Of a DNA stretch of 33,374 bases, positions 7,018 through 33,374 are shown piece by piece. The stretch is from the NCBI GenBank assembly GCA_016208545.1, contig JACQXU010000028.1, positions 1-33,374 of the forward strand, written 5' to 3'. The position numbers and the translations under genes are program-made. This DNA comes from Candidatus Uhrbacteria bacterium. Lineage in GTDB: Bacteria > Patescibacteriota > Patescibacteriia > UBA9934 > GWF2-40-263. The notes below the pieces were generated by a model that was given only the letters and a program-made list of their open reading frames with translations, had not been told where the DNA came from and ran no database searches. How positions within the stretch are numbered: the first letter of the stretch is position 1; the number at the start of each line of letters is the position of its first letter.

Positions 7018-7059
<42 letters not shown>

Positions 7060-9342: not shown

Positions 9343-9400
9343 GGTATACTCGCTTTTGTTCTTTCGCATATACTTACTACAAACTACCAACTACCAATTT

Positions 9401-11080: not shown

Positions 11081-11117
11081 CTTCATAACTCAAAGACTTC
11101 ATGACTCAATGACTTTT
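11081..11117. repeat. 8-nt-period array (GTCATTGA family) immediately after a stop codon
   Basis: The minus-strand reading is GTCATTGA GTCATGAA GTCTTTGA GTTATGAA. ACT recurs every 8 nt at 11088, 11096, 11104 and 11112. Confidence 0.55.
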
Positions 11118-12678: not shown

Positions 12679-12890
12679 GGGCCAGTAGCTCAGTTGGTAG
12701 CCCCGCACTACAACAATGAAATAGTACGGCTGGTGGCGGGCCTGTAGCTCAGTTGGCTAGAGCGTCTGCTTTGCAAGCAGAAGGTCAAGGGTTCGAGCCC
12801 CTTCAGGTCCACCATAATCCGTTCTTCTCATTGTTGTAGTGCGGGGTTGCAAGCAGGGGGTCTGGGGTTCGAATCCCCACTTGTCCACCA
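12679..12890 (+). pseudogene. tRNA-Ala-like gene split by a 146-nt insert and lacking about 10 nt (D-stem 3' strand plus anticodon-stem 5' strand)
   Basis: The 5' piece GGGCCAGTAGCTCAGTTGGTAG (12679-12700) and the 3' piece TTGCAAGCAGGGGGTCTGGGGTTCGAATCCCCACTTGTCCACCA (12847-12890) align with tRNA-Ala positions 1-22 and 33-76. This includes G3:U70, the UGC anticodon, the T arm and CCA. No equivalent of AGCGCCTGCT is present. Confidence 0.5.
12738..12814 (+). tRNA. tRNA-Ala(UGC): tRNA-Ala (anticodon UGC), CCA encoded
   Basis: The cloverleaf is: acceptor GGGCCTG/CAGGTCC with G3:U70; D arm GCTC-AGTTGGCTA-GAGC; anticodon arm TCTGC-TTTGCAA-GCAGA; T arm AAGGG-TTCGAGC-CCCTT; then ACCA. Confidence 0.9.
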
Positions 12891-12892
12891 TC

Positions 12893-16457: not shown

Positions 16458-19073
16458 TTATAACCCAGATATACCTCGAATAACAAAAGGCAAGATTCCA
16501 CCGTGGCGGAAATATTCGCATTCAACAACAGAGTCAAGTCGGCAAAGAACTTCGAATGTTTTGTTAGAACCGTCTGAATTCAAGGCTGTAACTGTGATTT
16601 TTTGTCCAGGTTTCAGATCATTATCAATTGGAATTGTAAATTTTCCACGACCCGTCAGGCCGATTATTTTTCTGTTTTGTCCTTCCAAAAATTGCAAAGG
16701 CAAAATTCCCATACCAATCAAATTACTTCTGTGAATCCGCTCGACACTTTCAAATAAAACTGCGCGCACGCCAAGTAGCGCTGGGCCTTTTGCCGCCCAA
16801 TCGCGAGACGAACCCATGCCATAATCTTTTCCAGCAATTACAACAAGTGGCGTTTTTTCTTTTTTGTATCGTTCTGCCGCTTCGAAAACTGAAGTCAGTT
16901 CATCTGTTGGAATGTGAATTGTAACACCTCCTTCAGTTCCTGGCGCAAGTTCATTTTTGAGTCTGACGTTTGCAAACGTTCCACGCATCATCACCTCATG
17001 ATTTCCTCTTCGTGCTCCGTAAGAGTTGAAATCTTTTGGTTCAATTCCGTTTTCTCGCAAATAATCCGCTGTCGGGCCAGTTCGTGCGATGTTTCCGGCC
17101 GGCGAAATATGATCAGTAGTCACAGAATCTCCAAGAACAAGAAGCGCTCTGGCTTCGTAAATCGGTTTGATTGCGTCAGGTTTTTTTGTGAGTCCAGCAA
17201 AAAATGTTGGCAAACGAATGTACGTTGATTTTTCATTCCATTTGTAAAGATTATCATTTGGCACAGACAGCGATTTCCACTGATCGCTTCCGACAGTCAC
17301 ATTTTGATATTGTGTTTTGAACAGTTCTGGTTTTAGCACGTTGTGAACGATAGATTGAATTTCTTGATTTGACGGCCAGATGTTTCGAAGAAAAATTGGA
17401 AGACCGTCAGGGTCGTGTCCAATAGGCTCATTTTCAAAATCAATATCAACTCGGCCTGCAAGAGCAAACGCAACAACAAGCGGAGGTGAAGCAAGGAAAT
17501 TTGCGCGTGTGATTGAATGAATCCGTCCTTCAAAATTTCTGTTCCCAGACAAAACAGAAGCAGTGACAAGTTTATTTTCTTCAACTATTTTTGTGAGTGA
17601 ATCATCGATAGGTCCGCTGTTGCCGATACATGTTGTGCATCCAAATCCAACAATATGAAATCCCAAAGTTTCCAAACTTTTAATAAGTCCAGAAGATTCA
17701 AGATATGCTTTTACAACTTGCGATCCAGGAGCGAGCGATGTTTTGACGTGCGACGGAGTGCGCAAACCGTTTTTGACTGCATTGCGCGCGAGAAGTCCTG
17801 CCGCGAGCATCACACTTGGGTTTGATGTGTTTGTGCAAGAAGTTATCGCGGCAATTAAGACAGAACCGTCGTGAATATTTCCATTGTCTTTGGAAGAGTT
17901 TGCTTCGTCTCCAAGAAATTTTTGAAATGTATTTTTTATATCTTTCAGTGCGACTCGATCTTGAGGACGAGTTGGACCAGCAACCGAGGTTTCTATTTCT
18001 GACAAATCAATTTCGATCGTTTCGGAATATTTAATATCATTTTGCGGCAACCCACCTTGTTCCACCCTTGGGAAAGGGGGAAAAACAAACAATCCTTGCG
18101 CGCGCAAATATCTCTCGGCTAAGTGCACTTGCTCGATGTCTCGTCCGGTGTTAATGAGATAGCGAATCGTTTCTGCGTCTGGCGGGAAAAATCCGATCGT
18201 TGCTCCGTACTCTGGAGCCATGTTCGAAATCGTTGCACGATCTGGAAGGGACAAAGTTGCAACAGCGGATCCAAAAAATTCGACAAATTTTTCAACAACT
18301 CCGTGCGAGCGCAAACGCTGTGTAATCGTCAAAACCAAATCTGTTGCAGTGACGCCATTTTTTAGCTCGCCAACAAGTCGCACACCAACAACTCGCGGAA
18401 TCAAAATGGAAATCGGCTGTCCTAGCATCGCGGCTTCGGCTTCAATTCCACCAACTCCCCATCCGAGCACACCAAGTCCATTTATCATTGTTGTATGTGA
18501 ATCCGTTCCAACGAGCGTGTCTGGAAAAATTTGTCCATCTTTTGTCGTAACAGTCGTTGCAAGATATTCCAAATTTACTTGATGTACAATTCCTGTTGCT
18601 GGTGGAATTACACGGAAGTTTTTGAAAACGTTTTGTCCCCATCGCAAAAATTCATAACGTTCACTATTGCGTTCAAATTCGCGCTCTGTATTTTGTGCGA
18701 GCGCTTCCGGCGATCCATAAGAATCAACCTGAACAGAATGATCAATTACTAAATCAACAGGCACTTTAGGATTGATTGCGGATGGGTCTATTCCAAAAGA
18801 TTTAACTGTTTCGCGCAACGCGGCCAAATCTACTACAGCCGGAACGCCGGTAAAATCTTGCATAAGAACGCGAGATGGATAAAACGGAATTTCTTGGTTA
18901 TGAAGTTCGTTGTCTCCCCATTTTAATTTTATTCGCTCTGCCATTTCTTCGTGCCCGTTTCGTAAAAGATTTTCAACCAAAATTCGAATAGAAAAAGGCA
19001 AATGTGAAACATCCACAAGCGCTGGGTATCGGAATTTTTCAGAGTCAGTTATTATTTCTAAGTTCTGTTTCAT
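16458..19073 (-). CDS. acnA: aconitate hydratase A
   Basis: It is full length, with LPFSIRILVENLLRN, MQDFTGVPAVVDLA, DHSVQVD, GTDSHTTMINGLG, CTNTSNP, GCTTCIGNSGP, NRNFEGR and SSRDWAAKG. Start MKQNLEII (ATG 19073) is preferred over the ORF-track start at 19175, which would translate the intergenic repeat. Confidence 0.95.
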   Translation of the reverse strand: MKQNLEIITDSEKFRYPALVDVSHLPFSIRILVENLLRNGHEEMAERIKLKWGDNELHNQEIPFYPSRVLMQDFTGVPAVVDLAALRETVKSFGIDPSAINPKVPVDLVIDHSVQVDSYGSPEALAQNTEREFERNSERYEFLRWGQNVFKNFRVIPPATGIVHQVNLEYLATTVTTKDGQIFPDTLVGTDSHTTMINGLGVLGWGVGGIEAEAAMLGQPISILIPRVVGVRLVGELKNGVTATDLVLTITQRLRSHGVVEKFVEFFGSAVATLSLPDRATISNMAPEYGATIGFFPPDAETIRYLINTGRDIEQVHLAERYLRAQGLFVFPPFPRVEQGGLPQNDIKYSETIEIDLSEIETSVAGPTRPQDRVALKDIKNTFQKFLGDEANSSKDNGNIHDGSVLIAAITSCTNTSNPSVMLAAGLLARNAVKNGLRTPSHVKTSLAPGSQVVKAYLESSGLIKSLETLGFHIVGFGCTTCIGNSGPIDDSLTKIVEENKLVTASVLSGNRNFEGRIHSITRANFLASPPLVVAFALAGRVDIDFENEPIGHDPDGLPIFLRNIWPSNQEIQSIVHNVLKPELFKTQYQNVTVGSDQWKSLSVPNDNLYKWNEKSTYIRLPTFFAGLTKKPDAIKPIYEARALLVLGDSVTTDHISPAGNIARTGPTADYLRENGIEPKDFNSYGARRGNHEVMMRGTFANVRLKNELAPGTEGGVTIHIPTDELTSVFEAAERYKKEKTPLVVIAGKDYGMGSSRDWAAKGPALLGVRAVLFESVERIHRSNLIGMGILPLQFLEGQNRKIIGLTGRGKFTIPIDNDLKPGQKITVTALNSDGSNKTFEVLCRLDSVVECEYFRHGGILPFVIRGISGL

Positions 19074-19083
19074 AGTATTATGT

Positions 19084-19260
19084 GACCTCTGCAAAACTGG
19101 TGCATTTTCGTCGAACAGGCTGTCGAGCCCGCGAAAACGGCAACAAAATTCTTGGGTAATTAATTTGTTAACCATTCAAAATTTAAACGAAGATTTAAGC
19201 ATGGAGAGCTGGCTCGACTGGTCGCCTGTAAGATGAAAATGCACCAGTTTTGCAGAGATC
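19084..19260. promoter_or_regulatory. 26-nt inverted repeat placed directly upstream of both divergent start codons (acnA, icd)
   Basis: GACCTCTGCAAAACTGGTGCATTTTC (19084-19109) matches the reverse complement of GAAAATGCACCAGTTTTGCAGAGATC (19235-19260) at 25 of 26 positions. The arms lie 10 nt from the acnA ATG and 4 nt from the icd ATG. Confidence 0.55.
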
Positions 19261-20446: not shown

Positions 20447-20551
20447 ATTATAAGAATAGATTGAATGAATAGAGTGGATGCGTAAACTGTTGACATTTTT
20501 TCACAGGGGTGAAAAGACGTCAACAAACTTTGCTACATAAATTTTTTTCTT

Positions 20552-21477: not shown

Positions 21478-22464
21478 TTAAATAATTTTTGGTTTGAATG
21501 ACGGATGCTTTTTTAGGCGCGAAGCAATTTGTCTATCAGATAAAAGGCCATCTTGAGGACCGACTTGTCCAATTACTGAAGCAGAATTTACAGATCCCCA
21601 TTTAAGAGCGTCTTTTGCTGTTTTTCCGTGCATGAGTGCTCCGATAAAACCAGTTGCAAAAGCATCGCCAGCGCCGGTAGCTTCAACCAGTTTTCCTGGA
21701 AAAATGTCAATTGAAAGCAAAGTTTTTCCATCAAAGCACGCCGCTCCATTTTTTCCATCTGTAACAACAACGACTTTAGCGCCTAAGCTATAAAGTTCTG
21801 TTGCAAGACGAGTTATTTCGTCTATCGTTTTTGAAATTAAGTATTGTGCTTCGCTTCGATTTACAAACAGCACTTCAGCTTTCTGAATCAATTCAAAAAG
21901 CACAGGTTTTCGTTCCGAAATTTGAACTGTTCCAGGATTTATGCCAAGTCGGATTTTTTTCTTTTGAACGTAGCGTGCGAGGTTTGAAAAAAAAGGTTCG
22001 TATCCATTTCCCATTTCACCAACGTAGAGCCATTTTGTTTCCGGCAATGGTTTTGGAAGGCGATATGCGTTTTGGTTGTGCGCGGTCAGCAATGTTTTTT
22101 CACCTTTGAAATTAAGAACTACCGAGTACGCGCTTTTTGCGCCTTTGATCGAACGAACGAAGCGTGTTGAAACTTTTTCTTTTTCAAGTTTTTCAAGTGA
22201 AAGTTTTCGAGTTCCATCCTGTCCCATATTTGAAATGACCGCAGTTTTTTGTCCCATTCGCGAAAGACCGACAGCGACGTTTGGAGCGGTTCCTGCGATT
22301 TGCGAATCCACCATTTCAACAACGATTTTTCCGCCGTAATCCAAACACAATTGGCATTCAGGCATTTTGAGTTGACATTGAAGGCTCGCGTCGTTTAAGA
22401 CGACGAATGTGTCGAGTTTGATGTCGCCGATTGTGATGAGATCGAGCATAATGGAAATAGTCAT
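21478..22464 (-). CDS. PfkB-family carbohydrate kinase
   Basis: It has LITIGD, GTAPNVAVGLSRMG and GAGDAFATGFIGAL. It lies between tktC and fba, and the substrate is not assignable. Confidence 0.85.
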   Translation of the reverse strand: MTISIMLDLITIGDIKLDTFVVLNDASLQCQLKMPECQLCLDYGGKIVVEMVDSQIAGTAPNVAVGLSRMGQKTAVISNMGQDGTRKLSLEKLEKEKVSTRFVRSIKGAKSAYSVVLNFKGEKTLLTAHNQNAYRLPKPLPETKWLYVGEMGNGYEPFFSNLARYVQKKKIRLGINPGTVQISERKPVLFELIQKAEVLFVNRSEAQYLISKTIDEITRLATELYSLGAKVVVVTDGKNGAACFDGKTLLSIDIFPGKLVEATGAGDAFATGFIGALMHGKTAKDALKWGSVNSASVIGQVGPQDGLLSDRQIASRLKKHPSFKPKII

Positions 22465-22505
22465 TGAGTCATTGAGTCATTGAGTCGTGGAGTCGTGAAG
22501 TGTGA
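22461..22505. repeat. 8-nt-period array that forms the whole tktC-pfkB spacer and contains the pfkB start codon
   Basis: The plus-strand reading is TCATTGAG x3, then TCGTGGAG TCGTGAAG. GAGTC recurs at 22466, 22474, 22482 and 22490. Confidence 0.75.
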
Positions 22506-22510
22506 AACAA

Positions 22511-23521
22511 TTATTTTAATTTCAGGACTCGGAATGCGGCAGTGATAATTGATCGTGCGGTAAGTCCAAACGCTTCTTGCAGTTGACGAGGTTCTCCGGA
22601 TTCTCCAAAACGATCTTGCACTCCGATTCGTTCAACCGGCACTGGAGTTGAAAGACATACTGTTTCAGCCACAGCTCCGCCAAGTCCGCCGACGGCTTGA
22701 GCTTCTTCGACTGTTACGATCGCGCCGGTTTCCTTTGTGGCCTTGATGATTGTTTTTACATCAAGCGGTTTGATCGTGTGCATGTTGATGACTCTTGCTT
22801 CGATTTTGTGGTCGAGTGATAGAATTTGCGCAGCTAACAAAGCTTCATAAAGAAGAGGTCCAGCCGCTATTATTGTGAGGTCATTGCCGAAGCGATATGT
22901 TTCAGCTCGGCCGATTTTGAATGGAGTTTTTTCTGTTGTGAAAACCGGAGATTTTTCACGTGCAAAACGAATATAGCAAGGACTTGAAAGTTTTGCGATT
23001 GCAATCGTTGCTTTTTTTGTTTCAAAAGAGTCGCACGGAACAAAAACTTTCATATTTGGCATTACACGCATGATCGCGATGTCTTCAATCATTTGATGAG
23101 TCGCGCCGTCTGGCCCAACCGAAACTCCTGCGTGAGCTCCTGCAATTTTCACATTGCTGTTTTGTATCGCGATTGTTGTTCTGATTTGTTCCCAATTGCG
23201 TCCCGGAGAAAAACACGCGTAACTTGAAATAAATGGAATTTTTCCAGTGATTGCCATTCCAGCCGCGATCGAAGCCATTGATTGCTCGCTGACTCCAAGT
23301 TGAACGAAGCGGTCAGGAAAAGCGTTTTTGAACGCGAGCGAACGTGTGGATTCTGTGAGATCTGCGCACAAAACCACTATGTTTTTGTCTTTTTTTCCAG
23401 CTTCGACAAGCCCATCGCCGTATCCATTTCTGGTTGGCACTTGTTCGAGTTTGTCAGGATCAAAAAGATGACGAACAAGATACGCCTCGCGATTAATGCC
23501 TGATTGTTGTTTTGTTTTCAT
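22511..23521 (-). CDS. tkt: transketolase, C-terminal (pyrimidine-binding plus C-terminal domain) subunit
   Basis: It has PTRNGYG, VVLCADL, FPDRF...GVSEQ, FISSYACF, AGVSVGPDGATHQ and a transketolase C-terminal domain. It is 336 aa. Confidence 0.9.
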   Translation of the reverse strand: MKTKQQSGINREAYLVRHLFDPDKLEQVPTRNGYGDGLVEAGKKDKNIVVLCADLTESTRSLAFKNAFPDRFVQLGVSEQSMASIAAGMAITGKIPFISSYACFSPGRNWEQIRTTIAIQNSNVKIAGAHAGVSVGPDGATHQMIEDIAIMRVMPNMKVFVPCDSFETKKATIAIAKLSSPCYIRFAREKSPVFTTEKTPFKIGRAETYRFGNDLTIIAAGPLLYEALLAAQILSLDHKIEARVINMHTIKPLDVKTIIKATKETGAIVTVEEAQAVGGLGGAVAETVCLSTPVPVERIGVQDRFGESGEPRQLQEAFGLTARSIITAAFRVLKLK

Positions 23522-23850
23522 AAATTATCTGTCATTGCGAGGGAGTCTTCAGACGACCGAAGCAATCTCCTCGTATAAGTCGTTCCATTTTGGAATAGTC
23601 GAGTTGATAAGTTCAACTTTTTTTTTCTTGAACCAGCTTTGAGTTGTTTTTCTCTTGAGATTGCATTGTAAGCTTCTTCGCACATTTCGTAATAAACAAG
23701 TTTGTTCAGATTATATTTTTTTGTAAATCCATCTATTAATTTTTCTCTATGTTCCCAGATTCTGCGAACGATGTTGTTGGTAACTCCAATATATAAAACT
23801 CGATTGTTGGTATTTGTAAGGATATAGACAAAATAAAGTTTATCTTCCAT
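23518..23850 (-). CDS. GIY-YIG nuclease family protein (YhbQ / COG2827-like)
   Basis: It has FYFVYILTNTNNRVLYIGVTNNIVRRIWEH, GFTKKYNLNKLVYYE and AISREKQLK. ATG 23850 is preferred, because the ORF-track N-terminal extension is a translated repeat arm. The C-terminus is out of register with the family after an A9 tract (see findings). Confidence 0.8.
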   Translation of the reverse strand: MEDKLYFVYILTNTNNRVLYIGVTNNIVRRIWEHREKLIDGFTKKYNLNKLVYYEMCEEAYNAISREKQLKAGSRKKKLNLSTRLFQNGTTYTRRLLRSSEDSLAMTDNL

Positions 23851-23948
23851 AAAATATGCATAGATTGCTTCGCGGAGTTTACCCTGAGCGAAGTCCCGCT
23901 TCCAGACGGGACCCCGCCAGAGGCGGTGGTCGAAGGGCTCGCAATTAC
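23531..23948. mobile_element. palindromic element with a GIY-YIG gene in its loop (putative autonomous copy of the GTCATTGCGAGG repeat family)
   Basis: The first arm is GTCATTGCGAGGGAGTCTTCAGACGACCGAAGCAATCTC (23531-23568). The second arm is AGATTGCTTCGCGG...GGGCTCGCAATTAC (23862-23948), in inverse orientation, degenerate and expanded. Only the GIY-YIG ORF lies between them. Confidence 0.55.
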
Positions 23949-23959
23949 ACAAATGAAAT

Positions 23960-24856
23960 CTATTCGTGTTCGCTCTTTATTTTTCCGCCAAGAGTGCGAA
24001 GCCACGCGAGCGCAGATTTTGCTTCAGAAAACGTTGGTGGTTTCCCATGCCATAAAAAGTCGTGTTCCATAAAATCAACTCCATATCCTGGAATTGTGTC
24101 TGCGATAATTACACTAGCTTTTTCGCTCATGCCGTGCGCTTGTTCAACAGCGCTTACAAAATCACGAATCGAATTTCCAGCACAGCGAATCACATTCAAA
24201 TTAAACGCTTCAAATTTTGCTTGCAAAGATTCAAGCGGCATGATTTCTTCGGTCGGTCCGTCAATCTGAATGTTGTTTCTGTCGATTATAAAAGTGCAGT
24301 TGTAAAGTTTGTTGCGTCCAGCAAAAAGCATTGCCTCCCAAGTTTGGCCTGCTTCGAGTTCGCCATCGCTCATTACACAATAAACTCGCCATGGCGCGTG
24401 ATTTAGAAGTCCAACATAGGCAATTCCAACTGCTTGAGATGATCCAGACCCGAGCGGGCCAGAAGTTGCTTCAACACCCGGCAGTTTTTCTCGTTCAGGA
24501 TGTCCTTGAAGAGGCGAGCCGAATTTGCGGAGAGTTTTGAGCCACGTTTTTGGAAAATATCCTGCGTGCGCCATCGCGGCGTAGCGAACAGGACAAATAT
24601 GTCCGTTTGAAAGAATCAAACGATCGCGGTCTTTCCAATTCGGTCGTTTTGGATCGTGGACCATCACATGAAAATAGAGTGCTGTAAAAATATCAGCCAT
24701 TCCAAGCGGGCCGGCTGAATGACCAGAGCCTGCCTCGACTAGCATTTTTATAATGTCTTCACGAATTTCAAAAGCTTTTTCTTCGAGTTTTTTGAGTTGT
24801 TTGTCGTGCAAGTGAAGTGGTTTTCTCACTTTTGGGCCTATCGCGAGATTTGGCAT
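23960..24856 (-). CDS. tkt: transketolase, N-terminal (thiamine-diphosphate-binding) subunit
   Basis: It has GSGHSAGPLGMADI, ILSNGH, LQGHPE, TSGPLGSGSSQAVG and MSDGELEAGQTWEA. ATG 24856 is preferred over TTG 24877. Confidence 0.9.
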   Translation of the reverse strand: MPNLAIGPKVRKPLHLHDKQLKKLEEKAFEIREDIIKMLVEAGSGHSAGPLGMADIFTALYFHVMVHDPKRPNWKDRDRLILSNGHICPVRYAAMAHAGYFPKTWLKTLRKFGSPLQGHPEREKLPGVEATSGPLGSGSSQAVGIAYVGLLNHAPWRVYCVMSDGELEAGQTWEAMLFAGRNKLYNCTFIIDRNNIQIDGPTEEIMPLESLQAKFEAFNLNVIRCAGNSIRDFVSAVEQAHGMSEKASVIIADTIPGYGVDFMEHDFLWHGKPPTFSEAKSALAWLRTLGGKIKSEHE

Positions 24857-24881
24857 AGTAAAAACATTGTAGCACAAACTA

Positions 24882-24905
24882 AAACAGGGCGCGTTGGCCC
24901 TGTTT
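24882..24905 (-). terminator. hairpin downstream of the cupredoxin-fold gene
   Basis: AAACAGGGC-GCGTTG-GCCCTGTTT. The minus-strand trailing sequence TAGTTTG is only moderately T-rich. Confidence 0.5.
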
Positions 24906-24914
24906 AGTGAAAAT

Positions 24915-25730
24915 TTATTGAACCGTGATCGTGCCTGTCATGTTGCTGTGATACGCACAATGAAATGAATACGTTCCAGCCGTTTTAAAGTATTTTATGA
25001 AACTTCCGCCTGCTGTCATTGTTCCTGTTCCCCATACTCCGTCGTCCCCGCTTGCTGAATGTTTTGTAGATCCGTTGTTTACAAACTTCACAGCTCGGCC
25101 AGCGCTCACAGTCACGTTGCTTGGTGTGTACATGTTATCTGTGATTGTAACTACGATCGCTGATTGAAGATTTTTGTCTGTATTTATGTCTGTTGCTTCA
25201 GCTTTTTCTGCGTTAACGCTGAAACTTGTCGAAATTTCAATAGCAGTGCTGATTTTGTAATTTGGGAAAAATCCATCCGGAACATCATCAATCATTTTAT
25301 TCCAGTTGCTTCCGTACAAAGTAATCGCGATTGCTTCTGTTGAAACATGACGCAGAGATCCTCCGCTTCCAACAGCGTACACTTTTGGATCACTATTGAT
25401 TTTAATCATTTTAACACCCGGCTTGTACGTTACATTTCCTCCGATTTGAATTGTTGCCAAGTCTTTATCAGTCAACCAAAGAACACTGTCAAAATTGCTA
25501 AACCATGTGAAATACGTTTTGTCGTTTGGGAAAACGTAACGCATTCCATCAGCTCCGTAATAATAAACTGCCGAATACGACTGACCGCGAATTAGGCTTC
25601 CTGATTGCAAATTTGCCGGAGTCGTGTAAGTTTGCGCGCTTGCTGTTGAGGTCCAAGTAGCAAACGACATTAAAACTGTCGCAAAAATCGTAAGAGTTGA
25701 AACGAAAATGAGAGAAAAACGTTTGGACAT
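24915..25730 (-). CDS. secreted protein with C-terminal type-1-copper (cupredoxin) domain
   Basis: The signal-like N-terminus is MSKRFSLIFVSTLTIFATVLM. The C-terminal roughly 90 aa carry ...VKFVNNGSTKHSA...YSFHCAYHSNMTGTITV. This is the His...Cys-x2-His-x3-Met arrangement of blue-copper ligands. Confidence 0.7.
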   Translation of the reverse strand: MSKRFSLIFVSTLTIFATVLMSFATWTSTASAQTYTTPANLQSGSLIRGQSYSAVYYYGADGMRYVFPNDKTYFTWFSNFDSVLWLTDKDLATIQIGGNVTYKPGVKMIKINSDPKVYAVGSGGSLRHVSTEAIAITLYGSNWNKMIDDVPDGFFPNYKISTAIEISTSFSVNAEKAEATDINTDKNLQSAIVVTITDNMYTPSNVTVSAGRAVKFVNNGSTKHSASGDDGVWGTGTMTAGGSFIKYFKTAGTYSFHCAYHSNMTGTITVQ

Positions 25731-25755
25731 AGAGTGAATAGGTGTTAGGTTTTAG

Positions 25756-26559
25756 TTATTTTACAATTATTGCGCCGCTCATCACAGATTTACTTGCGTA
25801 TTTTGAATAGTAATTCCATGTTCCTTTTTCAACAAAGTATCGCGTGAAATGCTGTCCTGGTTTAAGTGTTCCTGATCCCCAAACACTATCCCATTCTGTG
25901 GCTGAATGATTTGTTGTTGAGTTGTTGACCCATCGAACTGCTCGTCCGCTTTCGATCGTTGCTGTCGGGGGTTCGTAACTTGTATTGTTTATTGAAATAA
26001 TCGTCGCGGATTTGAGATTCTTGTCTGTATTGATATCGCTTGCATCAGCTTTTTCTGCGGTAATGCTGTATTGTGATGCAAATTCAATTTTACTTCCAAT
26101 TTCATAGTTTGAAAAAAATCCATCAGGAACATCATCAATTTGTTTATTCCAATTTGCTCCATAAAGTTCTTTCGCGATTTGTTCTGAAACAATCGCGCGA
26201 AGAGTTCCGTCGCTTCCAACCGCGTAAACTTTTGGATCGCTATTGATTTTTACCATTTTTACACCAGGTTTGTACGTTACATTTCCTCCAATTTGAATTG
26301 TTGCCAAATCTTTGTCAGTCACCCATTTTACAGAACTGAAATTGTTATACCATGTGAAATACGTTTTGTCGTTTGGGAAAACGTAACGCATTCCGTCAGC
26401 ACCGTAATAATAAACTGAAGAATAAGTTTGACCTCGGAAAAGATCGCCTGACTGGATTGAAGAGATTGGAATAATTGTTGCGGCGTTTGCAGGAAGGACA
26501 AAAAGTGCCGAGAGAACCCAGAAGGCCGAGATGGTCGAGAAGAAAAACGTTTTTTTCAT
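25756..26559 (-). CDS. paralog of the preceding gene with a degenerate copper site
   Basis: It has the same roughly 170-aa N-terminal domain (YYYGADGMRYVFPNDKTYFTW, IQIGGNVTYKPGVKM, DDVPDGFF). The C-terminal beta-domain reads YYSKYASKSVMSGAIIV, with no Cys and no second His. Confidence 0.6.
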   Translation of the reverse strand: MKKTFFFSTISAFWVLSALFVLPANAATIIPISSIQSGDLFRGQTYSSVYYYGADGMRYVFPNDKTYFTWYNNFSSVKWVTDKDLATIQIGGNVTYKPGVKMVKINSDPKVYAVGSDGTLRAIVSEQIAKELYGANWNKQIDDVPDGFFSNYEIGSKIEFASQYSITAEKADASDINTDKNLKSATIISINNTSYEPPTATIESGRAVRWVNNSTTNHSATEWDSVWGSGTLKPGQHFTRYFVEKGTWNYYSKYASKSVMSGAIIVK

Positions 26560-27197
26560 AAAAGTTTATTTAACTCTTTCAGTTTACCACTTGGATTGTC
26601 TGAATGAAAGATGAGCGAACCAACACATATTCTCTGTATTCCAGCTTTTATGAGCGGCTTGATTAGTTCTTCAGTTACTCCTCCGTCAATTTCAATTATC
26701 AAATCTTTGCGATGTTTGCGAGCTTGTTCGATTTTTTCAAAAACAATTTCATCAAATTTTTGACCTTGCAGTCCTGGATACACGCTCATAATTGTGAGCT
26801 GATCAATCCTGTGTAAAACCTCTTCAATTTCATGGAGTGGAGTTTCAGGATTGATTGCAACACCAACTTCAAGTCCGAGAATGTCTTTAATGTGACCAAC
26901 AACAGCGCCAAGTGGACGATGCATTTCCGCGCTCACGATTGCGCGTGTGAATGTTGGAACGAGTTGTTTGAACTGTTCTACGATCGGGATTGGATTTTCA
27001 ACCATGAGATGCGTTTCTATCGCGACTTTTGTTTTGATCGCGCCGATCGCGGTAGGATTAAACCAGGTTGTGTTTGGGAAAAGCGTTCCATCAAGCACAT
27101 CAATTTGAATGATGGCGCAATCGTTTTCGACAGCACGCAGATTTTTTTCAAATTCTTTTTTTGATTCGACAAGCAGTGCAGGAACTATTTGTGGCAT
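26556..27197 (-). CDS. rpe: ribulose-phosphate 3-epimerase
   Basis: It has IVPALL, IQIDVLDG..FPN, HLMVENP, MSVYPGLQGQKF and IEIDGGV. It is 213 aa. Confidence 0.85.
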   Translation of the reverse strand: MPQIVPALLVESKKEFEKNLRAVENDCAIIQIDVLDGTLFPNTTWFNPTAIGAIKTKVAIETHLMVENPIPIVEQFKQLVPTFTRAIVSAEMHRPLGAVVGHIKDILGLEVGVAINPETPLHEIEEVLHRIDQLTIMSVYPGLQGQKFDEIVFEKIEQARKHRKDLIIEIDGGVTEELIKPLIKAGIQRICVGSLIFHSDNPSGKLKELNKLL

Positions 27198-27223
27198 AAA
27201 GAAAATTATGGTAGCCGCGGGCT

Positions 27224-27697
27224 TTAGTCCGCGTGGTCGTATTCTTGATTCTCAATTTCCTTAACTTTATTTAGTCTACGAACATGACGGTCAGCGCCTG
27301 AAAATTCCGTTGAGAGCCATGCGTCAACAATTTTTTTCGCGCCTTCGATTTTCAGATGGCGTCCAGGCAAACAAAGAATGTTCGCGTTGTCGTCTGTGCG
27401 AGATGTTTTTGCCACTTTTTCGTCAAACCCTGTTGCGGCTCGCGCGCCTCGAACTTTGTTTGCCACAATACAAATTCCTTGCGCATTTCCGCAAATTACA
27501 ATTCCATGCGAGCCATCGTCCGTAACCACACGTTTTGCAACAGCATATCCAAATTCCGGATAATCATCATCTTGAACCAGATCTTGATTCCCCATATCAA
27601 CTACTTTATAGTCTTTGGTATTTAAGTAATCCTCGAGCGCTTCTTTAAGTGCCCATCCTCCATGATCAGCTCCAATGTAGATTGTTGGTTTGTTCAT
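27224..27697 (-). CDS. rpiB: ribose-5-phosphate isomerase B
   Basis: It has IGADHGG, DYPEF, GIVICGNAQGICIVANK, GARAA and DDNANILCLPGR. It is 157 aa. Confidence 0.9.
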   Translation of the reverse strand: MNKPTIYIGADHGGWALKEALEDYLNTKDYKVVDMGNQDLVQDDDYPEFGYAVAKRVVTDDGSHGIVICGNAQGICIVANKVRGARAATGFDEKVAKTSRTDDNANILCLPGRHLKIEGAKKIVDAWLSTEFSGADRHVRRLNKVKEIENQEYDHAD

Positions 27698-27820
27698 AAT
27701 AAAAATATTTTATCACAATCGCAGACAAACACAGTAATTTTTCTGTTTTCTCGCTACCTGGTAGCGAGAAGTTGGTTTTTTTGATTTTTTCTAGATTTTT
27801 TGGCATACTCGATGCGTATG

Positions 27821-27950
27821 CCCGGTAGGACAACAATGATCCGTCTCTTGTCCTTCTGTGCTTTAACACAAGCTGTACGACACCCTACGTAAGGAGTCGA
27901 AACAACGGCGGATAAAGAAAATTAACAAATATCATTGTTGTACTACCGGG
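27821..27950 (+). promoter_or_regulatory. 19-nt inverted repeat enclosing the last 130 nt of the ileS leader
   Basis: CCCGGTAGGACAACAATGA (27821-27839) pairs with TCATTGTTGTACTACCGGG (27932-27950) with 1 mismatch. The right arm ends 1 nt before ATG 27952. The only AAGGAG (27891-27896) lies in the enclosed loop. Confidence 0.5.
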
Positions 27951-27951
27951 T

Positions 27952-30900
27952 ATGAATTTTTCACAACGTGAGCAAGAAATCCTAAAACAATGGGACGATC
28001 GAAAAATTTTCAAAAAAACATTGGAGAAAGACGCGCCTAAGGGCTCGTTTGTGTTTTTTGAAGGTCCGCCAACAGCAAATGGACGGCCTGGCATTCATCA
28101 TGCCGAATCCCGTGCGTTTAAGGATAGCATTCCGCGTTTTCGCACAATGCAAGGGTATCGAGTTGTGAGAAAAGGCGGTTGGGACACACATGGTTTACCT
28201 GTTGAAATTGAAGTTGAAAAGCAACTTGGGTTCACTGGCAAAGCCCAGATTGAAGAATTTGGGATCGCGAAATTTAATGAGCTTTGCAAACAAAACGTTT
28301 GGAAATATAAAAAGGAGTGGGAAGAATTTACAAAGCGACTCGGTTTTTGGGTTGATCTTGAAAATGCGTATGTTACTTACGCGCCAGAATACATTGAATC
28401 TTTGTGGTGGGTGATCAAACAAGTATGGAATAAAGGACTTTTATACAAAGATTACCGTGTGACACCTCATTGCCCGCGTTGCGGAACGTCATTATCAAGC
28501 CACGAACTCGCGCAAGGATATAAAGATGTGAAGGATTTGAGTGTGACGGCGAAGTTTAGAATTGAAAGTCATGGAGTCACAGAGTCATGGAGTAATGGAA
28601 CTTCGGAATACATTTTGGCGTGGACAACAACGCCGTGGACATTGCCTGGGAATGTCGCGCTTGCTGTTGGAAAAGATATTGATTATGTGAAAGTGAAACA
28701 AGGTGATGAATTTTTGTGGTTAGCAAAAGACCGTCTTCAAATTTTAACAGGCGAATATGAAATCATCGAAGAAGTAAAAGGCGAAAAACTGGTTGGAAAA
28801 AAGTACGAACCGCTTTATCCGTATCTTAGAGATGTCATTGCGAGGAGCGAAGCGACGAAGCAATCTAGCGAAGAGATTGTTTCTATGGGTCAAGGTCTCC
28901 CTCGCAATGACAGAGATTCTGCTTTCACTATCGTTCCCGCCGATTTCGTCACAACACAAGATGGAACCGGAGTTGTTCACACAGCTGTAATGTACGGAGT
29001 TGATGATTTTGAATTGGGAAATAAAATTGGTCTTCCAAAACATCATGTTGTGAAACTTGACGGGACGTTTATTGAAGGAATGGATTTTCTTTCCGGTCGT
29101 TTTGTGGCTGACGAAGCTGTTGCTGTTGATATTATAAAAGATTTAGCGCATCGCGGACTTTTGTTCTCAAAAGAAAAGTTTGAACACTCATATCCGCACT
29201 GTTGGCGATGCAAAACAAAACTCATCTATTACGCAAAAGATTCTTGGTATATCGCAATGACTAAACTACGCGATGAACTTTTGAAACAAAATGACAATAT
29301 CCACTGGGAGCCGGAGCATATTAAGAATGGGCGATTTGGTGAATGGTTGCGCGAGGTGAAAGACTGGGCGTTTTCGAGAGAGCGTTATTGGGGAACACCG
29401 CTTCCGATTTGGGAATGTGAAAGTTGCAAACATCAAATGTGTGTTGGGAGTTTTGAAGAGTTGCAGTCATTGCGAGCGACCAACGGAAGCGAAGCTATCT
29501 CTGCGACTGAAGAGATTGCTTCGGTCGGCAAGAGCATCCCTCGCAATGACGAGGCAAATTTCGATCCTCATCGTCCTTATATTGATGAGATTAAAATCGT
29601 ATGTGAAAAATGTTCAGGTTCTGCAAAGCGTGTTCCGGATGTGTGTGATGTTTGGTTTGATTCAGGCGCAATGCCGTTTGCGCAGTGGCATTATCCATTT
29701 GAAAATAAAGAGATTGTTGATTCAGGTGAAGAATATCCGGCAGATTATATTTCAGAAGCCATTGATCAAACTCGTGGATGGTTTTATACACTTCTCGCTG
29801 TTGCGACTTTGCTTGGGAAAGAACGGCCGTTTAAAAATGTGATTTGTTTAGGACACGTTTTAGACGCTGAAGGAAAAAAGATGAGCAAGTCTCTCGGAAA
29901 TATAGTTTTACCGATGGAAGCAATGGAAAAGTTCGGCGCTGATGCAATTCGTTGGTACATGTACACAATCAATCAGCCAGGTGAGTCAAAACGGTTTGAT
30001 GAAAAAGCGCTTTCAGAAATGGTGAAAAAGAATTTTGGAATTTTGTCGAACGTTGTTTCTTTCTATAAAATGTTTTCTACTCCACGACTCCACGACTCCA
30101 CGACTCTACGACTCCACATTCTCGATCGTTGGATTCTCGCGCGACTTCACAAACTCACAAAAGAAACAACTTCAAGACTCGAAAATTATATTATCACTGA
30201 AACCGTTCGAGAGCTCGGAGATTTTATTGATGATCTCTCAACTTGGTATGTTCGTCGTTCGCGCGATAGGTTTAAGGGCACAAACGAAAAAGATAAGCAG
30301 TCTGCGATCGCGACTTTGCATGAATGTCTTTTGACTTTTTCAAAACTTATCGCGCCGTTTGCGCCGTTTTTAGCTGAAACTGTTTATCAAGACATTGGAG
30401 GAGAAAAAGAATCTGTTCATTTGGAAGATTGGCCGGCGTTTGATGATTCTATGATTGATGAAAATCTGCTTTTGGATATGAAAACCGTTCGCGGAATTGT
30501 TTCTCGTGTTCTTGAACGTCGTTCAGAAGCTCAAATTCCAGTGCGACAAGCGCTTGGTTCAATGAAAGTAATTCTTCCAACAGGAGAACTGTCTCAAGAA
30601 TATCAAGATTTGATTTTGGATGAAGTGAATGTCAAAAAGATTGAAGTTCAAAAAGGCGATTTGTCAGTTGAACTTGATTTAACTCTTACACCAGAACTTT
30701 TGCGTGATGGAATTGCACGCGAAATTATTCGTCGTGTGAATACGCTTCGAAAAGAGAAGGGCTTGACGATCAATAATCGAATTGAATTGTTTGTTTCGGG
30801 TTCAGACGAAGTTTTTCGAGTTGTCGAAGAACATCGTGCTGAACTTTTGCACGGAACACTTTCAGATTTGATTCGCACAAAAGGCAGTTCGCCAGAAACA

Positions 30901-30957
30901 AGCGAATCGTTTCTAGTAAACGATCAGAAAGTTGTTGTTGGGTTTGATGTAAAGTGA
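27952..30957 (+). CDS. ileS: isoleucine--tRNA ligase
   Basis: It has PPTANGRPGIHH (HIGH), WTTTPWTLPGN, DGTGVVHTA, CWRCKTKL, SRERYWGTPLP, DVWFDSG, SEAIDQTRGWFY and KKMSKSLGN (KMSKS). It is 1001 aa. Confidence 0.95.
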   Translation: MNFSQREQEILKQWDDRKIFKKTLEKDAPKGSFVFFEGPPTANGRPGIHHAESRAFKDSIPRFRTMQGYRVVRKGGWDTHGLPVEIEVEKQLGFTGKAQIEEFGIAKFNELCKQNVWKYKKEWEEFTKRLGFWVDLENAYVTYAPEYIESLWWVIKQVWNKGLLYKDYRVTPHCPRCGTSLSSHELAQGYKDVKDLSVTAKFRIESHGVTESWSNGTSEYILAWTTTPWTLPGNVALAVGKDIDYVKVKQGDEFLWLAKDRLQILTGEYEIIEEVKGEKLVGKKYEPLYPYLRDVIARSEATKQSSEEIVSMGQGLPRNDRDSAFTIVPADFVTTQDGTGVVHTAVMYGVDDFELGNKIGLPKHHVVKLDGTFIEGMDFLSGRFVADEAVAVDIIKDLAHRGLLFSKEKFEHSYPHCWRCKTKLIYYAKDSWYIAMTKLRDELLKQNDNIHWEPEHIKNGRFGEWLREVKDWAFSRERYWGTPLPIWECESCKHQMCVGSFEELQSLRATNGSEAISATEEIASVGKSIPRNDEANFDPHRPYIDEIKIVCEKCSGSAKRVPDVCDVWFDSGAMPFAQWHYPFENKEIVDSGEEYPADYISEAIDQTRGWFYTLLAVATLLGKERPFKNVICLGHVLDAEGKKMSKSLGNIVLPMEAMEKFGADAIRWYMYTINQPGESKRFDEKALSEMVKKNFGILSNVVSFYKMFSTPRLHDSTTLRLHILDRWILARLHKLTKETTSRLENYIITETVRELGDFIDDLSTWYVRRSRDRFKGTNEKDKQSAIATLHECLLTFSKLIAPFAPFLAETVYQDIGGEKESVHLEDWPAFDDSMIDENLLLDMKTVRGIVSRVLERRSEAQIPVRQALGSMKVILPTGELSQEYQDLILDEVNVKKIEVQKGDLSVELDLTLTPELLRDGIAREIIRRVNTLRKEKGLTINNRIELFVSGSDEVFRVVEEHRAELLHGTLSDLIRTKGSSPETSESFLVNDQKVVVGFDVK
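28567..28598. repeat. 8-nt-period array in frame in ileS
   Basis: AGTCATGG AGTCACAG AGTCATGG AGTAATGG encodes ESHGVTESWSNG in a naturally variable segment before WTTTPWT. Confidence 0.6.
28834..28911. repeat. 78-nt GTCATTGCGAGG...CCTCGCAATGAC palindromic element translated in frame in ileS
   Basis: The sequence is GTCATTGCGAGGAGCGAAGCGACGAAGCAATCT-AGCGA-AGAGATTGTTTCTATGGGTCAAGGTCTCCCTCGCAATGAC. This is 26 codons, VIARSEATKQSSEEIVSMGQGLPRND. Confidence 0.75.
29466..29550. repeat. 85-nt copy of the same palindromic element translated in ileS
   Basis: The sequence is GTCATTGCGAGCGACCAACGGAAGCGAAGCTATCTC...AGAGATTGCTTCGGTCGGCAAGAGCATCCCTCGCAATGAC. It encodes SLRATNGSEAISATEEIASVGKSIPRND. The left arm is read in a different frame from the first copy; the right arm is read in the same frame. 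Confidence 0.75.
30078..30118. repeat. 8-nt-period array in frame in ileS, reverse complement of the 28567 array family
   Basis: CGACTCCA x3 and CGACTCTA begin at 30085, 30093, 30101 and 30109. The array encodes STPRLHDSTTLRLH. Confidence 0.6.
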
Positions 30958-31096
30958 TGGCATCTCGTCACTTAGTGACGTGGAATGTTTACAACTTTTC
31001 ACAGGGGTGAACTTTTGTCAGCAAAATTTTTGTTATAACTTTTGTCAGCAGTTCAACCAGTTCAACTGGTTCACTTGATTCATCTTGATCGTATTT

Positions 31097-31966
31097 ATGA
31101 ATTTATTAGTTTCATCTTTATTGCATTCTTCAGTTCTAATAGTTCCGCTCAATGATGCGGAATCTATTTTGATCAGCCAGATCGCGCAAAAGATCGGCTT
31201 GCAAACAATTCTTTCAAAACAAACTCACGGCGCGTCGCTTGATAAAGGCCGCGATTATTTTCCAATCATCAAAAAAGGCAAATTCAAAAAAGTGATCGCT
31301 GTTGAAATGCCGGGGCCTAAAACGGAAACTAAGTTGAAAAAACTCGGAATCTATTTTGTTATTATTGATCATCATCATTACACAGGTTTGGATCGCGCGC
31401 ACGACGCATCTCAAAAGATGTTGCCTTCGTCACTCGAGCAATTTCTCAAACTTTTCAAACTTACAGACACAAAATTAAAAACATTAGGTTTTGATCCGAG
31501 ATTAGTTCGCGGGATAGGAATTTATGATCGCGGTTTCATTTGGGCGCTTCAAGAAGAAGGTTATGGCAAATCAGAGATAAAAAGCGTTCTCGCTTTTCAC
31601 GATGCGCTTATTTCACAAATCCACAATCCAAAAACCGAAGCGCGAAAACAATCAATCGCAAAACGCGCATGGCAAAGTCGAAAAAAATGGCGAGAATTTT
31701 TTATTGTTGAAACAAAAGCGGACATTCAACTTCGTCCGCGTTTGTCGCGAATTGTAGCAGAAGAATTTGAAAAACCAACTCCGCTTATTGTCATTGAACA
31801 CAAACGCGGTTTGATTTATATTCAAGAGTCTGACAAAGCGATAGATCTTTTTCAAAAGTTCGGCGGATTCACATTTGGCCAAGATCGTAATTGGGGGTAT
31901 CGTAATGAAAAAAGGAAAAGGCGTGTTACAGTCCGTGATGTAAAAAAAGTTTTATTGAACCAATAA
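31097..31966 (+). CDS. hypothetical protein
   Basis: This is a 289-aa ORF from ATG 31097. It contains VIIDHHHY, but I cannot place the other DHH-family motifs. No confident family assignment is possible. Confidence 0.55.
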   Translation: MNLLVSSLLHSSVLIVPLNDAESILISQIAQKIGLQTILSKQTHGASLDKGRDYFPIIKKGKFKKVIAVEMPGPKTETKLKKLGIYFVIIDHHHYTGLDRAHDASQKMLPSSLEQFLKLFKLTDTKLKTLGFDPRLVRGIGIYDRGFIWALQEEGYGKSEIKSVLAFHDALISQIHNPKTEARKQSIAKRAWQSRKKWREFFIVETKADIQLRPRLSRIVAEEFEKPTPLIVIEHKRGLIYIQESDKAIDLFQKFGGFTFGQDRNWGYRNEKRKRRVTVRDVKKVLLNQ

Positions 31967-32064
31967 GCCTGTTGCTAAATAATTTGTCAGAATAACAATA
32001 GTAGATTGCGGATAAGTAATTAAGCTAAATTAAGCCAAAAAGTATAGAAAGTGCCACTGAACCC

Positions 32065-32093
32065 TTGACAGTATTTTGGTTTCGTGGTATACT
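32065..32093 (+). promoter_or_regulatory. near-consensus sigma70 promoter TTGACA-17nt-TATACT
   Basis: TTGACA is at 32065-32070 and TATACT at 32088-32093, with exactly 17 nt between them. It is preceded by the same ACCC as the promoter at 647. Confidence 0.6.
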
Positions 32094-32099
32094 GCTGTT

Positions 32100-32351
32100 G
32101 TAAGGATGAGAACAGAAAGAAAGGGAAACGAGAACATTCAAACAATTTAATGTGTCGCCTAGGAAACGACACTTCGCTATAAAGAGCGAGAGAGCCCGAC
32201 TCTGGGGTTACAAGAGAAACCAGCTAAATCAGCTGTCATTGCGAGGAAGTCTAGCCTTAAGGCAAGACGACGAAGCAATCTCAGTGTTTAGCTTGTGAAG
32301 CAGGTTTTGGAATTCTCTCTAACAAAGGATTCTAAAACCTGCTTTTTCTTT
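32100..32351 (+). ncRNA. candidate roughly 250-nt small RNA (consensus promoter to intrinsic terminator)
   Basis: There is no ORF over 14 codons. The unit ends in a 14-bp hairpin, GCAGGTTTTGGAAT (32300-32313) with ATTCTAAAACCTGC (32329-32342), followed by TTTTTCTTT. It contains one arm of the GTCATTGCGAGG repeat. Confidence 0.4.
32235..32282 (+). repeat. single arm of the GTCATTGCGAGG repeat family
   Basis: GTCATTGCGAGGAAGTCTAGCCTTAAGGCAAGACGACGAAGCAATCTC has the same module order as 23531-23568, with a longer internal hairpin. Confidence 0.6.
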
Positions 32352-32975
32352 ATGAAAAAGCAACTCGTAGTGCTCGGATAGATAGGAGTGGGGGCCGCAA
32401 GGTCACCAAAAGCGAGAGAGCTTAATCCTATTTACCAGAGTCTACACTCTGACAATCTCCGGCCTTTTGGCTGGATCTTCCGGGGACGACAACCGGAAAC
32501 GTCGAGGTCGCTGGAATACGTCCGTTCGCCTGATGGTTATCAGGCGAACAGGCACAAGGCGATCTCCCCAATGTGAGTCAGATCACATTGTGGTAATGAG
32601 TGCGCAAGAGTGGAAATTAAACTTCCATTCCTTGCACTCCTTATCACTAAAACATGTGGTAGACGCAGGCTTCAGCCTGCGTGACTTCGCGAGAGAGGAG
32701 TGTTCGTTACAACTAAATAATCTTCGATCGTTTTTTCTGAACTCAACCGTTTTTGAACTATCCGTCCGTGCACGACACTTTGTGCCGAATGCGCGAACAA
32801 CGGACTCAAAGAGCAGGTGACTTTGGATAACGATCTTCCTTAGCTCGTAATCTCTATATTTATGAGTTTTGGAAGCGCCACCTCATGTGAGGCGACGCGA
32901 CTGATTTTGGGCACCCATGCCCTCCGCTTGATGCGGAAAAAATGGGGAGAAATAAAATGTGCCAGATGAATTGTA

Positions 32976-33142
32976 CCCGCGCGGCCGCCGCGCGGGCAAT
33001 CTTCTCGGCGAAGGCGGCGGGCCGTCAGGCCCCCGCCTTCTACCTCGGCGTTCTCGCCGCGTACGCGCGGCAGGACAAGGCCGAGGAGACCCGCAGGGCG
33101 TACCTGCGGGCCCGTGGCTGGCGCGTCTCGCGCTAGCTCGCC
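32976..33142 (+). other. roughly 165-bp very GC-rich block, foreign-looking in this AT-rich sequence
   Basis: It is a run of GC hairpins (CCCGCGCGG-CCG-CCGCGCGGG at 32976-32996, GAAGGCGGCGGGCC/GGCCCCCGCCTTC, CCCGCAGG/CCTGCGGG). In the frame of ORF 32942-33136, 49 of 53 codon third positions are G or C (hand count). Confidence 0.5.
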
Positions 33143-33374
33143 ACAAAAAAGAGGAAAGGAAAAAAAACGATGAGTAACTAGCAACATCCGCGTTTGATTG
33201 GCACGCGGGTGTGAAGAAAAAGCGGCAAAGGTCCGCAAAGTCAGTCCGGGGTGTTCGTACTCCTCGTTAGGGTCGCACCAAAATACGGACGAGTTTCGGC
33301 TCGTAAAAACCGAAAAAGCATTCGGGGAGCGTTGCGATTGCACATCGCTTCGCTCCCCAACTCACTTTGCTACT

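Follow-up and report, generated by a model that had tools for sequence, protein, structure and literature searches.

A GIY-YIG nuclease gene between SRM-type hairpin repeats in Candidatus Uhrbacteria and its probable membership in the Ssn/SRM system

Single-domain GIY-YIG nucleases of about 94 amino acids (aa) were defined as the Ssn family by Chenal et al. (2025, Nat Commun 16:2388; PMC11893778). SsnA of Neisseria meningitidis is a single-domain protein of 94 aa assigned to CDD cd10448 (GIY-YIG_unchar_3). It binds its repeat, NTS (CGTCATTCCCGCGMAVGCGGGAATCYRG), solely as single-stranded DNA (ssDNA) and cuts a few nucleotides upstream; neither double-stranded DNA (dsDNA) nor RNA nor the reverse strand serves as a substrate, and RNA of the same sequence is not bound (PMC11893778). 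Cleavage depended on the three bases 5' of the palindrome, and the C immediately 3' of it mattered most for binding (PMC11893778). The biochemistry of the family was shown for four homologs, from Neisseria and Wolbachia. Homologs were recognized by assignment to cd10448 or by a tblastn match to N. meningitidis SsnA with E < 1e-10, and 71% of the ssn homolog genes had at least one hairpin repeat of this kind (Ssn-related motif, SRM) nearby, with 42% having them on both sides (PMC11893778). In Neisseria, SsnA lowers transformation by NTS-bearing DNA. The NTS-ssnA-NTS arrangement was likened to an insertion sequence (IS) and to REP/RAYT, and domestication was proposed (PMC11893778). The present analysis concerns a GIY-YIG gene lying between inverted hairpin repeats and between two transketolase genes in a 33,374-nt stretch of DNA (contig JACQXU010000028.1, positions 1 to 33,374; hereafter the window) of Candidatus Uhrbacteria (Patescibacteria). 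Judged from its sequence, the locus has a probability of about 85% of being an Ssn-family nuclease gene accompanied by its cognate SRM hairpin repeats. This assignment was made because of the layout, tag and end of the repeat unit, the spacing of the catalytic residues and the NTS-type repeats near homologs. The features concerned are as follows.

23518-23850, minus strand: ssn-like GIY-YIG gene as assembled; 110 codons, ATG at 23850; PF01541, E = 8e-16
23531-23568, plus strand (antisense to the operon): SRM unit downstream of ssn, reading GTCATTGCGAGGGAGTCTTCAGACGACCGAAGCAATCT; layout GTCATTGCGAGG-core-CGAAGCAATCT
23862-23948, minus strand: SRM unit upstream of ssn, with the minus-strand sequence GTAATTGCGAG...CGAAGCAATCT; GC-rich core of 66 nt, one tag mismatch
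28834-28911 (78 nt), plus strand: inverted SRM doublet in ileS, with units 28834-28865 (+) and 28875-28911 (-); in frame, encoding VIARSEATKQSSEEIVSMGQGLPRND
29466-29550 (85 nt), plus strand: inverted SRM doublet in ileS, with units 29466-29499 (+) and 29514-29550 (-); in frame, encoding (Q)SLRATNGSEAISATEEIASVGKSIPRND
32235-32282, plus strand: lone intergenic SRM unit; repeat family D19, 89% over 28 nt

The nuclease protein was 100 aa long after repair of its reading frame and consisted of a single domain, with PF01541 as the sole Pfam match and no accessory domain. Residues Y9, Y20 and E67 were invariant in an alignment of 24 sequences (A1), and their spacing (11 and 47 residues) was that of the published catalytic residues Y6, Y17 and E64 of SsnA. 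The gene was flanked 5' and 3' by inverted hairpin repeats in the window and in two orthologous loci, L201 and L202. The window unit, CGTCATT-GCGAG...GAAGC-AATCYNG, matched NTS in its tag, in the arrangement of the palindrome, in its trailing C and in the 3' AATC-Y; a directional 5' GTC(A/T)Y tag was followed by a palindrome with a C right 3' of it. Moreover, NTS-type repeats lay near homologs that share 49-58% identity with the window protein (E ≤ 1e-30). One of these (L171) had CGTCATTCCCGCGAAAGCGGGAATCCAG, the exact NTS consensus, within 200 nt upstream, near-consensus copies ending in CAT stood on both sides of another (L193), and four others (L154, L187, L188 and L195) had NTS-type copies within ~450 nt.

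The elementary repeat unit was (C/T)GTCATTGCGAG followed by a variable core of 6-66 nt and GAAGCAATC(C/T), with a unit length of 30-90 nt. Seven units were present in the window: two beside the nuclease gene, four as two inverted pairs in ileS, and one alone. Six of the seven had the form GTC-ATTGC...GCAAT-C; the seventh, at 23862-23948, had GTA-ATTGC and thus the tag GTAAT. On the ssn sense strand this upstream unit read GTAATTGCGAG...GCGAAGCAATCT, with nested GC-rich hairpins in its long core, and its 3' end lay 11 nt ahead of the ssn ATG, which is the modal position of the upstream unit in homolog loci. The 10 nt 5' of the lone unit at 32235 (TAAATCAGCT) were similar to those 5' of the unit at 23531 (TAAATTATCT). 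The repeat observation was confirmed as real and beyond chance. The motif ATTGCGAG occurred 8 times in the window against 1.47 expected, and GATTGCTTCG, with at most one mismatch, 11 times against 3.1; neither count was reached in any of 100 shuffles. The arms, the 78- and 85-nt versions in ileS without an open reading frame (ORF) and the lone arm at 32235-32282, all reported in a preliminary description drawn up from the letters alone, were present. That description gave the ileS versions the same termini as the arms, which they have; each ileS element is an inverted pair of the elementary unit. No Rfam family matched any unit, either at gathering thresholds over the whole window or at E up to 5 over 23400-33374.

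The nuclease gene was frameshifted as assembled. In a DNA alignment with L201 and L202, the window had AGAAAAAAAAAG (a run of nine A, A9, at 23618-23626) where both orthologs had AGAAAAAAGAAAG. This 1-nt deletion in the A9 run shifted the ssn frame, and tblastn matches to the gene broke in two at the run. The ancestral frame encoded 100 aa, with the end ...LYEEIASVV and a TGA at 23549-23551, in the downstream unit's loop, so that this unit supplied the last six ssn codons plus the ancestral stop. The closest homolog (88% identity) had the C-terminus ...DLYEEIASVG (KKKVDLINSINPKWDDLYEEIASVG), and homologs of the protein clustered at 95-98 aa. The ORF given as 111 aa in the preliminary description was a genuine GIY-YIG gene, with 110 codons as assembled. 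The overlap of its stop with the tktC start (ATGA at 23518-23521) exists as assembled and is a by-product of the frameshift, because the ancestral frame stops at 23549-23551; co-translation of the nuclease within an essential operon, which had been proposed from the overlap, rested on the shifted frame and was not supported. The frame-repaired gene had a ratio of nonsynonymous to synonymous substitution rates (dN/dS) of 0.07-0.08 against the orthologs, the region past the shift included, and is under strong purifying selection. Because the ratio stays low even downstream of the shift, the lesion either arose very recently or is a sequencing error in the homopolymer, and the A9 run may properly read AAAAAAGAAA. 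The low dN/dS fits a maintained, possibly domesticated gene equally well as a selfish gene. Other searches with the protein gave little. A PDB search by sequence returned only weak SLX1 and UPF0213 matches, and the likeness to YhbQ that had been noted beforehand holds only loosely (UPF0213 structure 1zg2, E = 0.72); PADLOC and NCBIfam gave only sub-threshold matches, among them TIGR01453 at 18.3 bits (cut-off 56; E = 0.0018) over residues 7-38 only. A second GIY-YIG copy was sought in the window and none was found.

Several points weigh against the assignment to the Ssn/SRM system. The published SRM string, HGTCWYN(0-2)YYVSBRHN(0-5)WNVSBRGN(0-2)RNCYNB, found the NTS consensus and none of the window units, and the window motif is a variant beyond the published operational SRM definition in its stem, core composition and length. 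The single units of the window folded weakly as ssDNA, with z values from +1.4 to -2.0. Furthermore, ssn may be inactive in this genome, since it is frameshifted as assembled. The upstream unit reached -17.9 kcal/mol (z = -1.8) and the lone unit z = -2.0, while the two ileS doublets formed long hairpins (z = -4.3 for 28834-28911 and -4.2 for 29466-29550). Folding of the arms, which had been suggested as a check, was thus strong for doublets and weak for single units. Across genomes, unit cores formed better hairpins than their shuffled versions (mean z = -1.27), and 31% beat 95 of 100 shuffles.

The outer stem covaried by class (ATTGC/GCAAT, ATTCT/AGAAT, ATCCT/AGGAT, ATTCC/GGAAT and ATCCC/GGGAT), with the GTC tag and the trailing C constant. 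Compensatory changes were also seen across orthologs in the core stem of the downstream unit (GTC-TGAA-GAC, GGC-TAAA-GCC and CCGG-ATGAA-CCGG). Protein identity was greater within a stem class than between classes, a difference reached in 0 of 2000 permutations and confounded by shared ancestry. Among relatives of this protein, ATTGC appears to be the commonest stem class.

The association of the repeat with the nuclease was explored at two scales. A scan of one genome per species with the pattern CATTGCGAG-N(4-34)-GAAGCAATC gave at least 120 stretches. The matches listed came from Alpha-, Gamma- and Deltaproteobacteria, Bacteroidota, Chloroflexi, Cyanobacteria, Planctomycetota, Zixibacteria, Patescibacteria, Sporomusa and Helicobacter; many of them were inverted doublets 20-50 nt apart, and one from Planctomycetota (L070) was an exact repeat of the window layout. 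A GIY-YIG gene lay within 8 kb of 2 of the 120 repeat loci among the matches listed, a figure that says nothing on association, since it would follow from a large excess of repeat units over nuclease genes. At 80 metagenomic loci of nuclease homologs, the exact unit type occurred within 200 nt upstream in 43, downstream in 39 and on both sides in 37. A generalised unit was then defined as GTC, a 5-nt stem starting with AT, a core, the complementary stem and C. At least one such unit lay within 250 nt at 69 of the 80 loci, and 59 had units on both sides. Their density fell from 6.5 per kb near the gene to 0.48 per kb further off, against 0.046 per kb in shuffled sequence. Their orientation was biased as in the window, with 90 plus to 23 minus upstream and 92 minus to 47 plus downstream. 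A specific link between the repeat and this nuclease family is therefore supported, and the proposed pattern of one coding copy with many miniature copies was borne out. The preliminary description knew of no described GIY-YIG-linked family of this kind; the nuclease-repeat association was already published in 2025, including the comparison with IS and REP/RAYT (PMC11893778). New here are the ATTGC stem class missed by the published string, the 1-nt frameshift, the empty tkt junctions, the multi-class in-frame insertions in isoleucyl-tRNA synthetase (IleRS) and the purifying selection.

The SRM-ssn-SRM arrangement (hereafter the cassette, ~440 nt) separated the two transketolase genes:

22511-23521, minus strand: tktC, transketolase pyrimidine-binding and C-terminal domains (PF02779, PF02780); ATG 9 nt after the downstream SRM
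23960-24877, minus strand: tktN, transketolase N-terminal half (PF00456); stop 11 nt before the upstream SRM

The distance from the tktN stop to the tktC ATG was 438 nt, as previously described. The best matches of tktC and IleRS were from Candidatus Uhrbacteria. The cassette occupied the same junction with the same layout in L201 (ssn 88% identical) and L202 (73%). In two other close relatives the junction was empty, with TAA-AAT-ATG in L203 and TGA-T-ATG in L204, so that tktN abutted tktC across a gap of 1-3 nt. These empty sites contained no doublet; hence, the whole cassette and not the gene alone is present or absent. A more distant relative had an unrelated gene at the junction. In a neighbour-joining tree of tktC, a single-gene tree without support values in which several identities were nearly tied, empty and occupied genomes interleaved, and at least two gain or loss events at the junction are thereby implied. 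For instance, tktC of the empty L203 was 89% identical to that of the window, whereas that of the occupied L202 was 81% identical. The limits of the present or absent segment lay 9-11 nt outside one GTCAT tag and 9-13 nt outside the other, and the outer flanks were inverted-repeat-like, with ~9 nt of further similarity past GTCAT (AATTTCY-GTCAT). The cassette and the dispersed SRMs are thus gained or lost between close relatives, and the presence/absence polymorphism that had been proposed for inspection was found at both the tkt junction and ileS. In a relative without SRMs at this place (L207, 394-1761), the neighbour of tktN encoded a reverse transcriptase and was accompanied by a bAvd-like accessory gene, the pair resembling a diversity-generating retroelement, and no tktC was called within that locus.

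The two dispersed doublets with the same termini were located in one coding sequence:

27952-30957, plus strand: ileS, holding both in-frame inverted SRM doublets

Both doublets were free of stop codons, with the peptides VIARSEATKQS...LPRND and SLRATNGSEAIS...IPRND, and both were insertions relative to the solved IleRS structure 8c9d. The corresponding loops among 120 relatives were usually 18-20 residues long, and SRM-derived peptides occurred in a patchy subset. The first doublet (28834-28911) was also an insertion relative to most Uhrbacteria IleRS. A relative with an 86% identical IleRS had neither insert, and its 17 kb of syntenic DNA contained no SRM. Relative to the closest insert-free relative, the loops were too diverged for base-level boundaries of the insertions. 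An AGAGAT repeat surrounded the first doublet and was absent from orthologs. In another Candidatus Uhrbacteria genome (GCA_016188475.1, L208), the same two ileS loops held doublets of the ATCCT and ATCTC/ATCCC classes (8883-8948 and 9503-9580). The first of these had the same left boundary as the ATTGC doublet of the window; all four arms differ, which suggests replacement or conversion and not point mutation. An ATTGC doublet was also observed just upstream of ileS in that genome (7885-7985). In Uhrbacteria, the two IleRS loops seem to take up short insertions in general.

Further repeats and in-frame SRMs were observed. In the loops aligned to window residues 291-326 and 503-541, the IleRS homologs P0245, P0250, P0275, P0288 and P0317 had peptides from one or more other repeat families (PPSKGG, PLLPKEGLGEV and similar motifs). 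Tandem 8-nt repeats with a GTCAT-like core as in the SRM tag occurred at 22459-22494, 11080-11115, 28567-28599 and 30079-30117 (AGTCATTG, ACTCAATG, AGTCATGG and ACTCCACG); two of these four tracts were in frame within ileS, at loops hypervariable among relatives. SRMs of the ATTGC class were also in frame in unrelated genomes, namely in a GMP-synthase-like gene from another phylum (L095, 4513-4541, …VIARPRSGAAISKNSEIASEGAPRND…) and in the gene for a 944-aa protein (L076, 2336-2367).

If the biochemistry reported by Chenal et al. (PMC11893778) extends to this locus, the GIY-YIG protein of ~95-100 aa would bind the SRM as folded ssDNA, with the GTC tag 5' and the C 3' of the palindrome, and would cut the same strand a few nucleotides upstream. 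The predicted cut sites would be at the outer edges of the cassette and of each doublet, on opposite strands, a geometry that would suit either excision or the processing of ends in ssDNA intermediates. In this organism, the most likely substrate of the nuclease is ssDNA that carries SRMs, for example transforming DNA entering the cell or intermediates of replication and repair. A bolder proposal, made in the preliminary description and raised as a hypothesis by Chenal et al., is that SRM-ssn-SRM is an autonomous IS-like element that cuts its own ends, with the ORF-less doublets as derivatives mobilised in trans in the manner of REPINs or MITEs (miniature transposable elements with inverted repeats). 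The gene between terminal inverted units, the doublets with exactly the same termini and the inverted similarity that runs past GTCAT at the cassette ends are consistent with it. The clean empty sites interleaved with occupied genomes, where the whole cassette is the unit present or absent, the patchy insertions in the IleRS loops of the 120 relatives and the SRM-free 17-kb syntenic region of the relative with the 86% identical IleRS point the same way. These comparative data make the autonomous mechanism somewhat more plausible without establishing it, and we regard it as a less likely explanation. No target-site duplication was found at 92 doublets, nor any excess of direct repeats over permuted controls; for the same reason a classical DDE-type IS or MITE, despite the inverted termini, was rejected for want of a fixed-length duplication. 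GIY-YIG enzymes are hydrolases, and no strand-transfer activity is known for them. The cassette was kept at one junction while the protein diverged to 73% identity at a dN/dS of ~0.07, which looks like vertical inheritance of a useful gene. Patchiness could also arise without any transposition if alleles are replaced through homologous recombination in a population that transforms naturally, and the interleaving carries the limits of the tktC tree given above. It is somewhat doubtful that an active element family exists in Uhrbacteria in which an ssDNA-specific GIY-YIG nuclease drives the cassette and the doublets, the latter repeatedly colonising, in frame, permissive loops in essential proteins, much like Rickettsia palindromic elements (RPEs).

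The position of the gene, which corresponds to that of the spacer separating a doublet's inner ends, together with the frequency of the GIY-YIG fold among homing endonucleases and the weak, sub-threshold TIGR01453 match, could suggest a homing-type selfish gene that parasitises the repeats by inserting into the spacer of pre-existing doublets. This is improbable: the empty tkt junctions of 1-3 nt held no doublet to be invaded, the protein has no DNA-binding domain at all, and characterised family members do not cut dsDNA (PMC11893778). Moreover, the 3' end of the gene (...EIAS) is encoded by the unit in the window and in both orthologs, which points to a long-standing fusion of gene and repeat. 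Least probable is a role of the units at the RNA level, where they would terminate or stabilise transcripts or serve as a cis-regulatory leader of the nuclease mRNA. In many homolog loci the start codon follows the end of a unit by 11-35 nt, the purine-rich strand could, from its sequence, form tandem G·A pairs, and a terminator-like hairpin follows the lone unit at 32235. Such a role is opposed by the lack of an Rfam match even at E up to 5, by the occurrence of units in both orientations and within coding sequence, by the weak folding of single units and by the failure of Neisseria SsnA to bind RNA of the same sequence (PMC11893778). Cleavage of SRM-bearing ssDNA by an Ssn-family nuclease is the reading preferred here.

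Two questions were left open by Chenal et al.: the role of Ssn outside Neisseria and whether the IS-like NTS-ssnA-NTS is or was mobile. The locus and its relatives form a compact natural test set for them, with a cassette that is present or cleanly absent, a conserved nuclease and doublets of several classes in two IleRS loops. Published counts of SRM-bearing genomes are probably underestimates, because the search string misses the ATTGC class. If active movement of the SRM family is true, it would represent a transposition-like mechanism without known precedent for the GIY-YIG fold.

Additional observations were made elsewhere in the window. The 23S rRNA gene (1182-7243) was split by insertions, as is typical of Patescibacteria; these included two Rfam group I introns (3457-3673 and 4033-4267) and three ORFs for LAGLIDADG endonucleases (4278-4991, 5286-5957 and 6337-6870). 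A tRNA-Ala(TGC) gene at 12738-12814 (within 12679-12892) lay between the arms of a 19-bp inverted repeat (12700-12719/12828-12847), which interrupts a second tRNA-Ala-like sequence whose halves flank it; ARAGORN called the inner tRNA only. Two families of conserved intergenic elements of 56-65 nt were found (1-56, 9296-9351 and 19042-19097; 20481-20545 and 30979-31043), some of them arranged as inverted pairs (9161-9215/9288-9342 and 19072-19120/19224-19272); both families may serve as promoters or in regulation. Two tandem duplicate genes (24915-25730 and 25756-26559) were 70-88% identical in DNA, and the gene of relatives at this place is cupredoxin-like.

Comparison with known systems placed the locus closest to Ssn/SRM. 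GIY-YIG homing endonucleases such as I-TevI and Seg share the catalytic domain and the tie to selfish or mobile DNA, whereas they have a separate DNA-binding domain and cut dsDNA at the intron-less or gene-less allele; here the catalytic domain is bare. Membership in that group was rejected on the TIGR01453 score and because the protein is not long enough to hold a second domain. RPEs, likened here by description and not by sequence, are likewise short palindromic repeats in frame within genes, essential ones included, tolerated in surface loops and patchy among relatives. Rickettsia is listed by Chenal et al. among the genomes with >300 SRMs, and RPEs are not mentioned there (PMC11893778). 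The REP/REPIN-RAYT system (TnpA-REP, a Y1 HuH transposase) resembles the locus in a small nuclease gene between inverted short hairpin repeats, in dispersed inverted doublets, in the lack of target-site duplication and in the recognition of a folded single strand with a short conserved 5' tag. It differs in that the RAYT is an HuH tyrosine enzyme with a covalent intermediate and the nuclease here a GIY-YIG hydrolase, in its tag (GTAG or CGTC against GTCAT here) and in mobilisation, which for Ssn is hypothetical. Membership was rejected since the flanked gene is GIY-YIG and no Y1_Tnp or other transposase was found among window ORFs of at least 120 aa. From the described Ssn/SRM system of Neisseria (SsnA/NTS), the locus differs in the stem (ATTGC/GCAAT against ATTCCCGC/GCGGGAAT in NTS), the GAG...GAA internal loop and the variable inner hairpin, in its patescibacterial host, its frameshifted gene and its units unmatched by the published string. 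The window units also lie in frame in an essential gene, whereas only 2% of N. meningitidis NTS lie inside genes (PMC11893778). In common are a single-domain GIY-YIG protein of ~95-100 aa with equal catalytic spacing, a 5' CGTCATT tag with an imperfect palindrome and a 3' AATC-Y end, inverted hairpin repeats on both sides of the gene, dispersed ORF-less copies and a distribution over many bacterial phyla.

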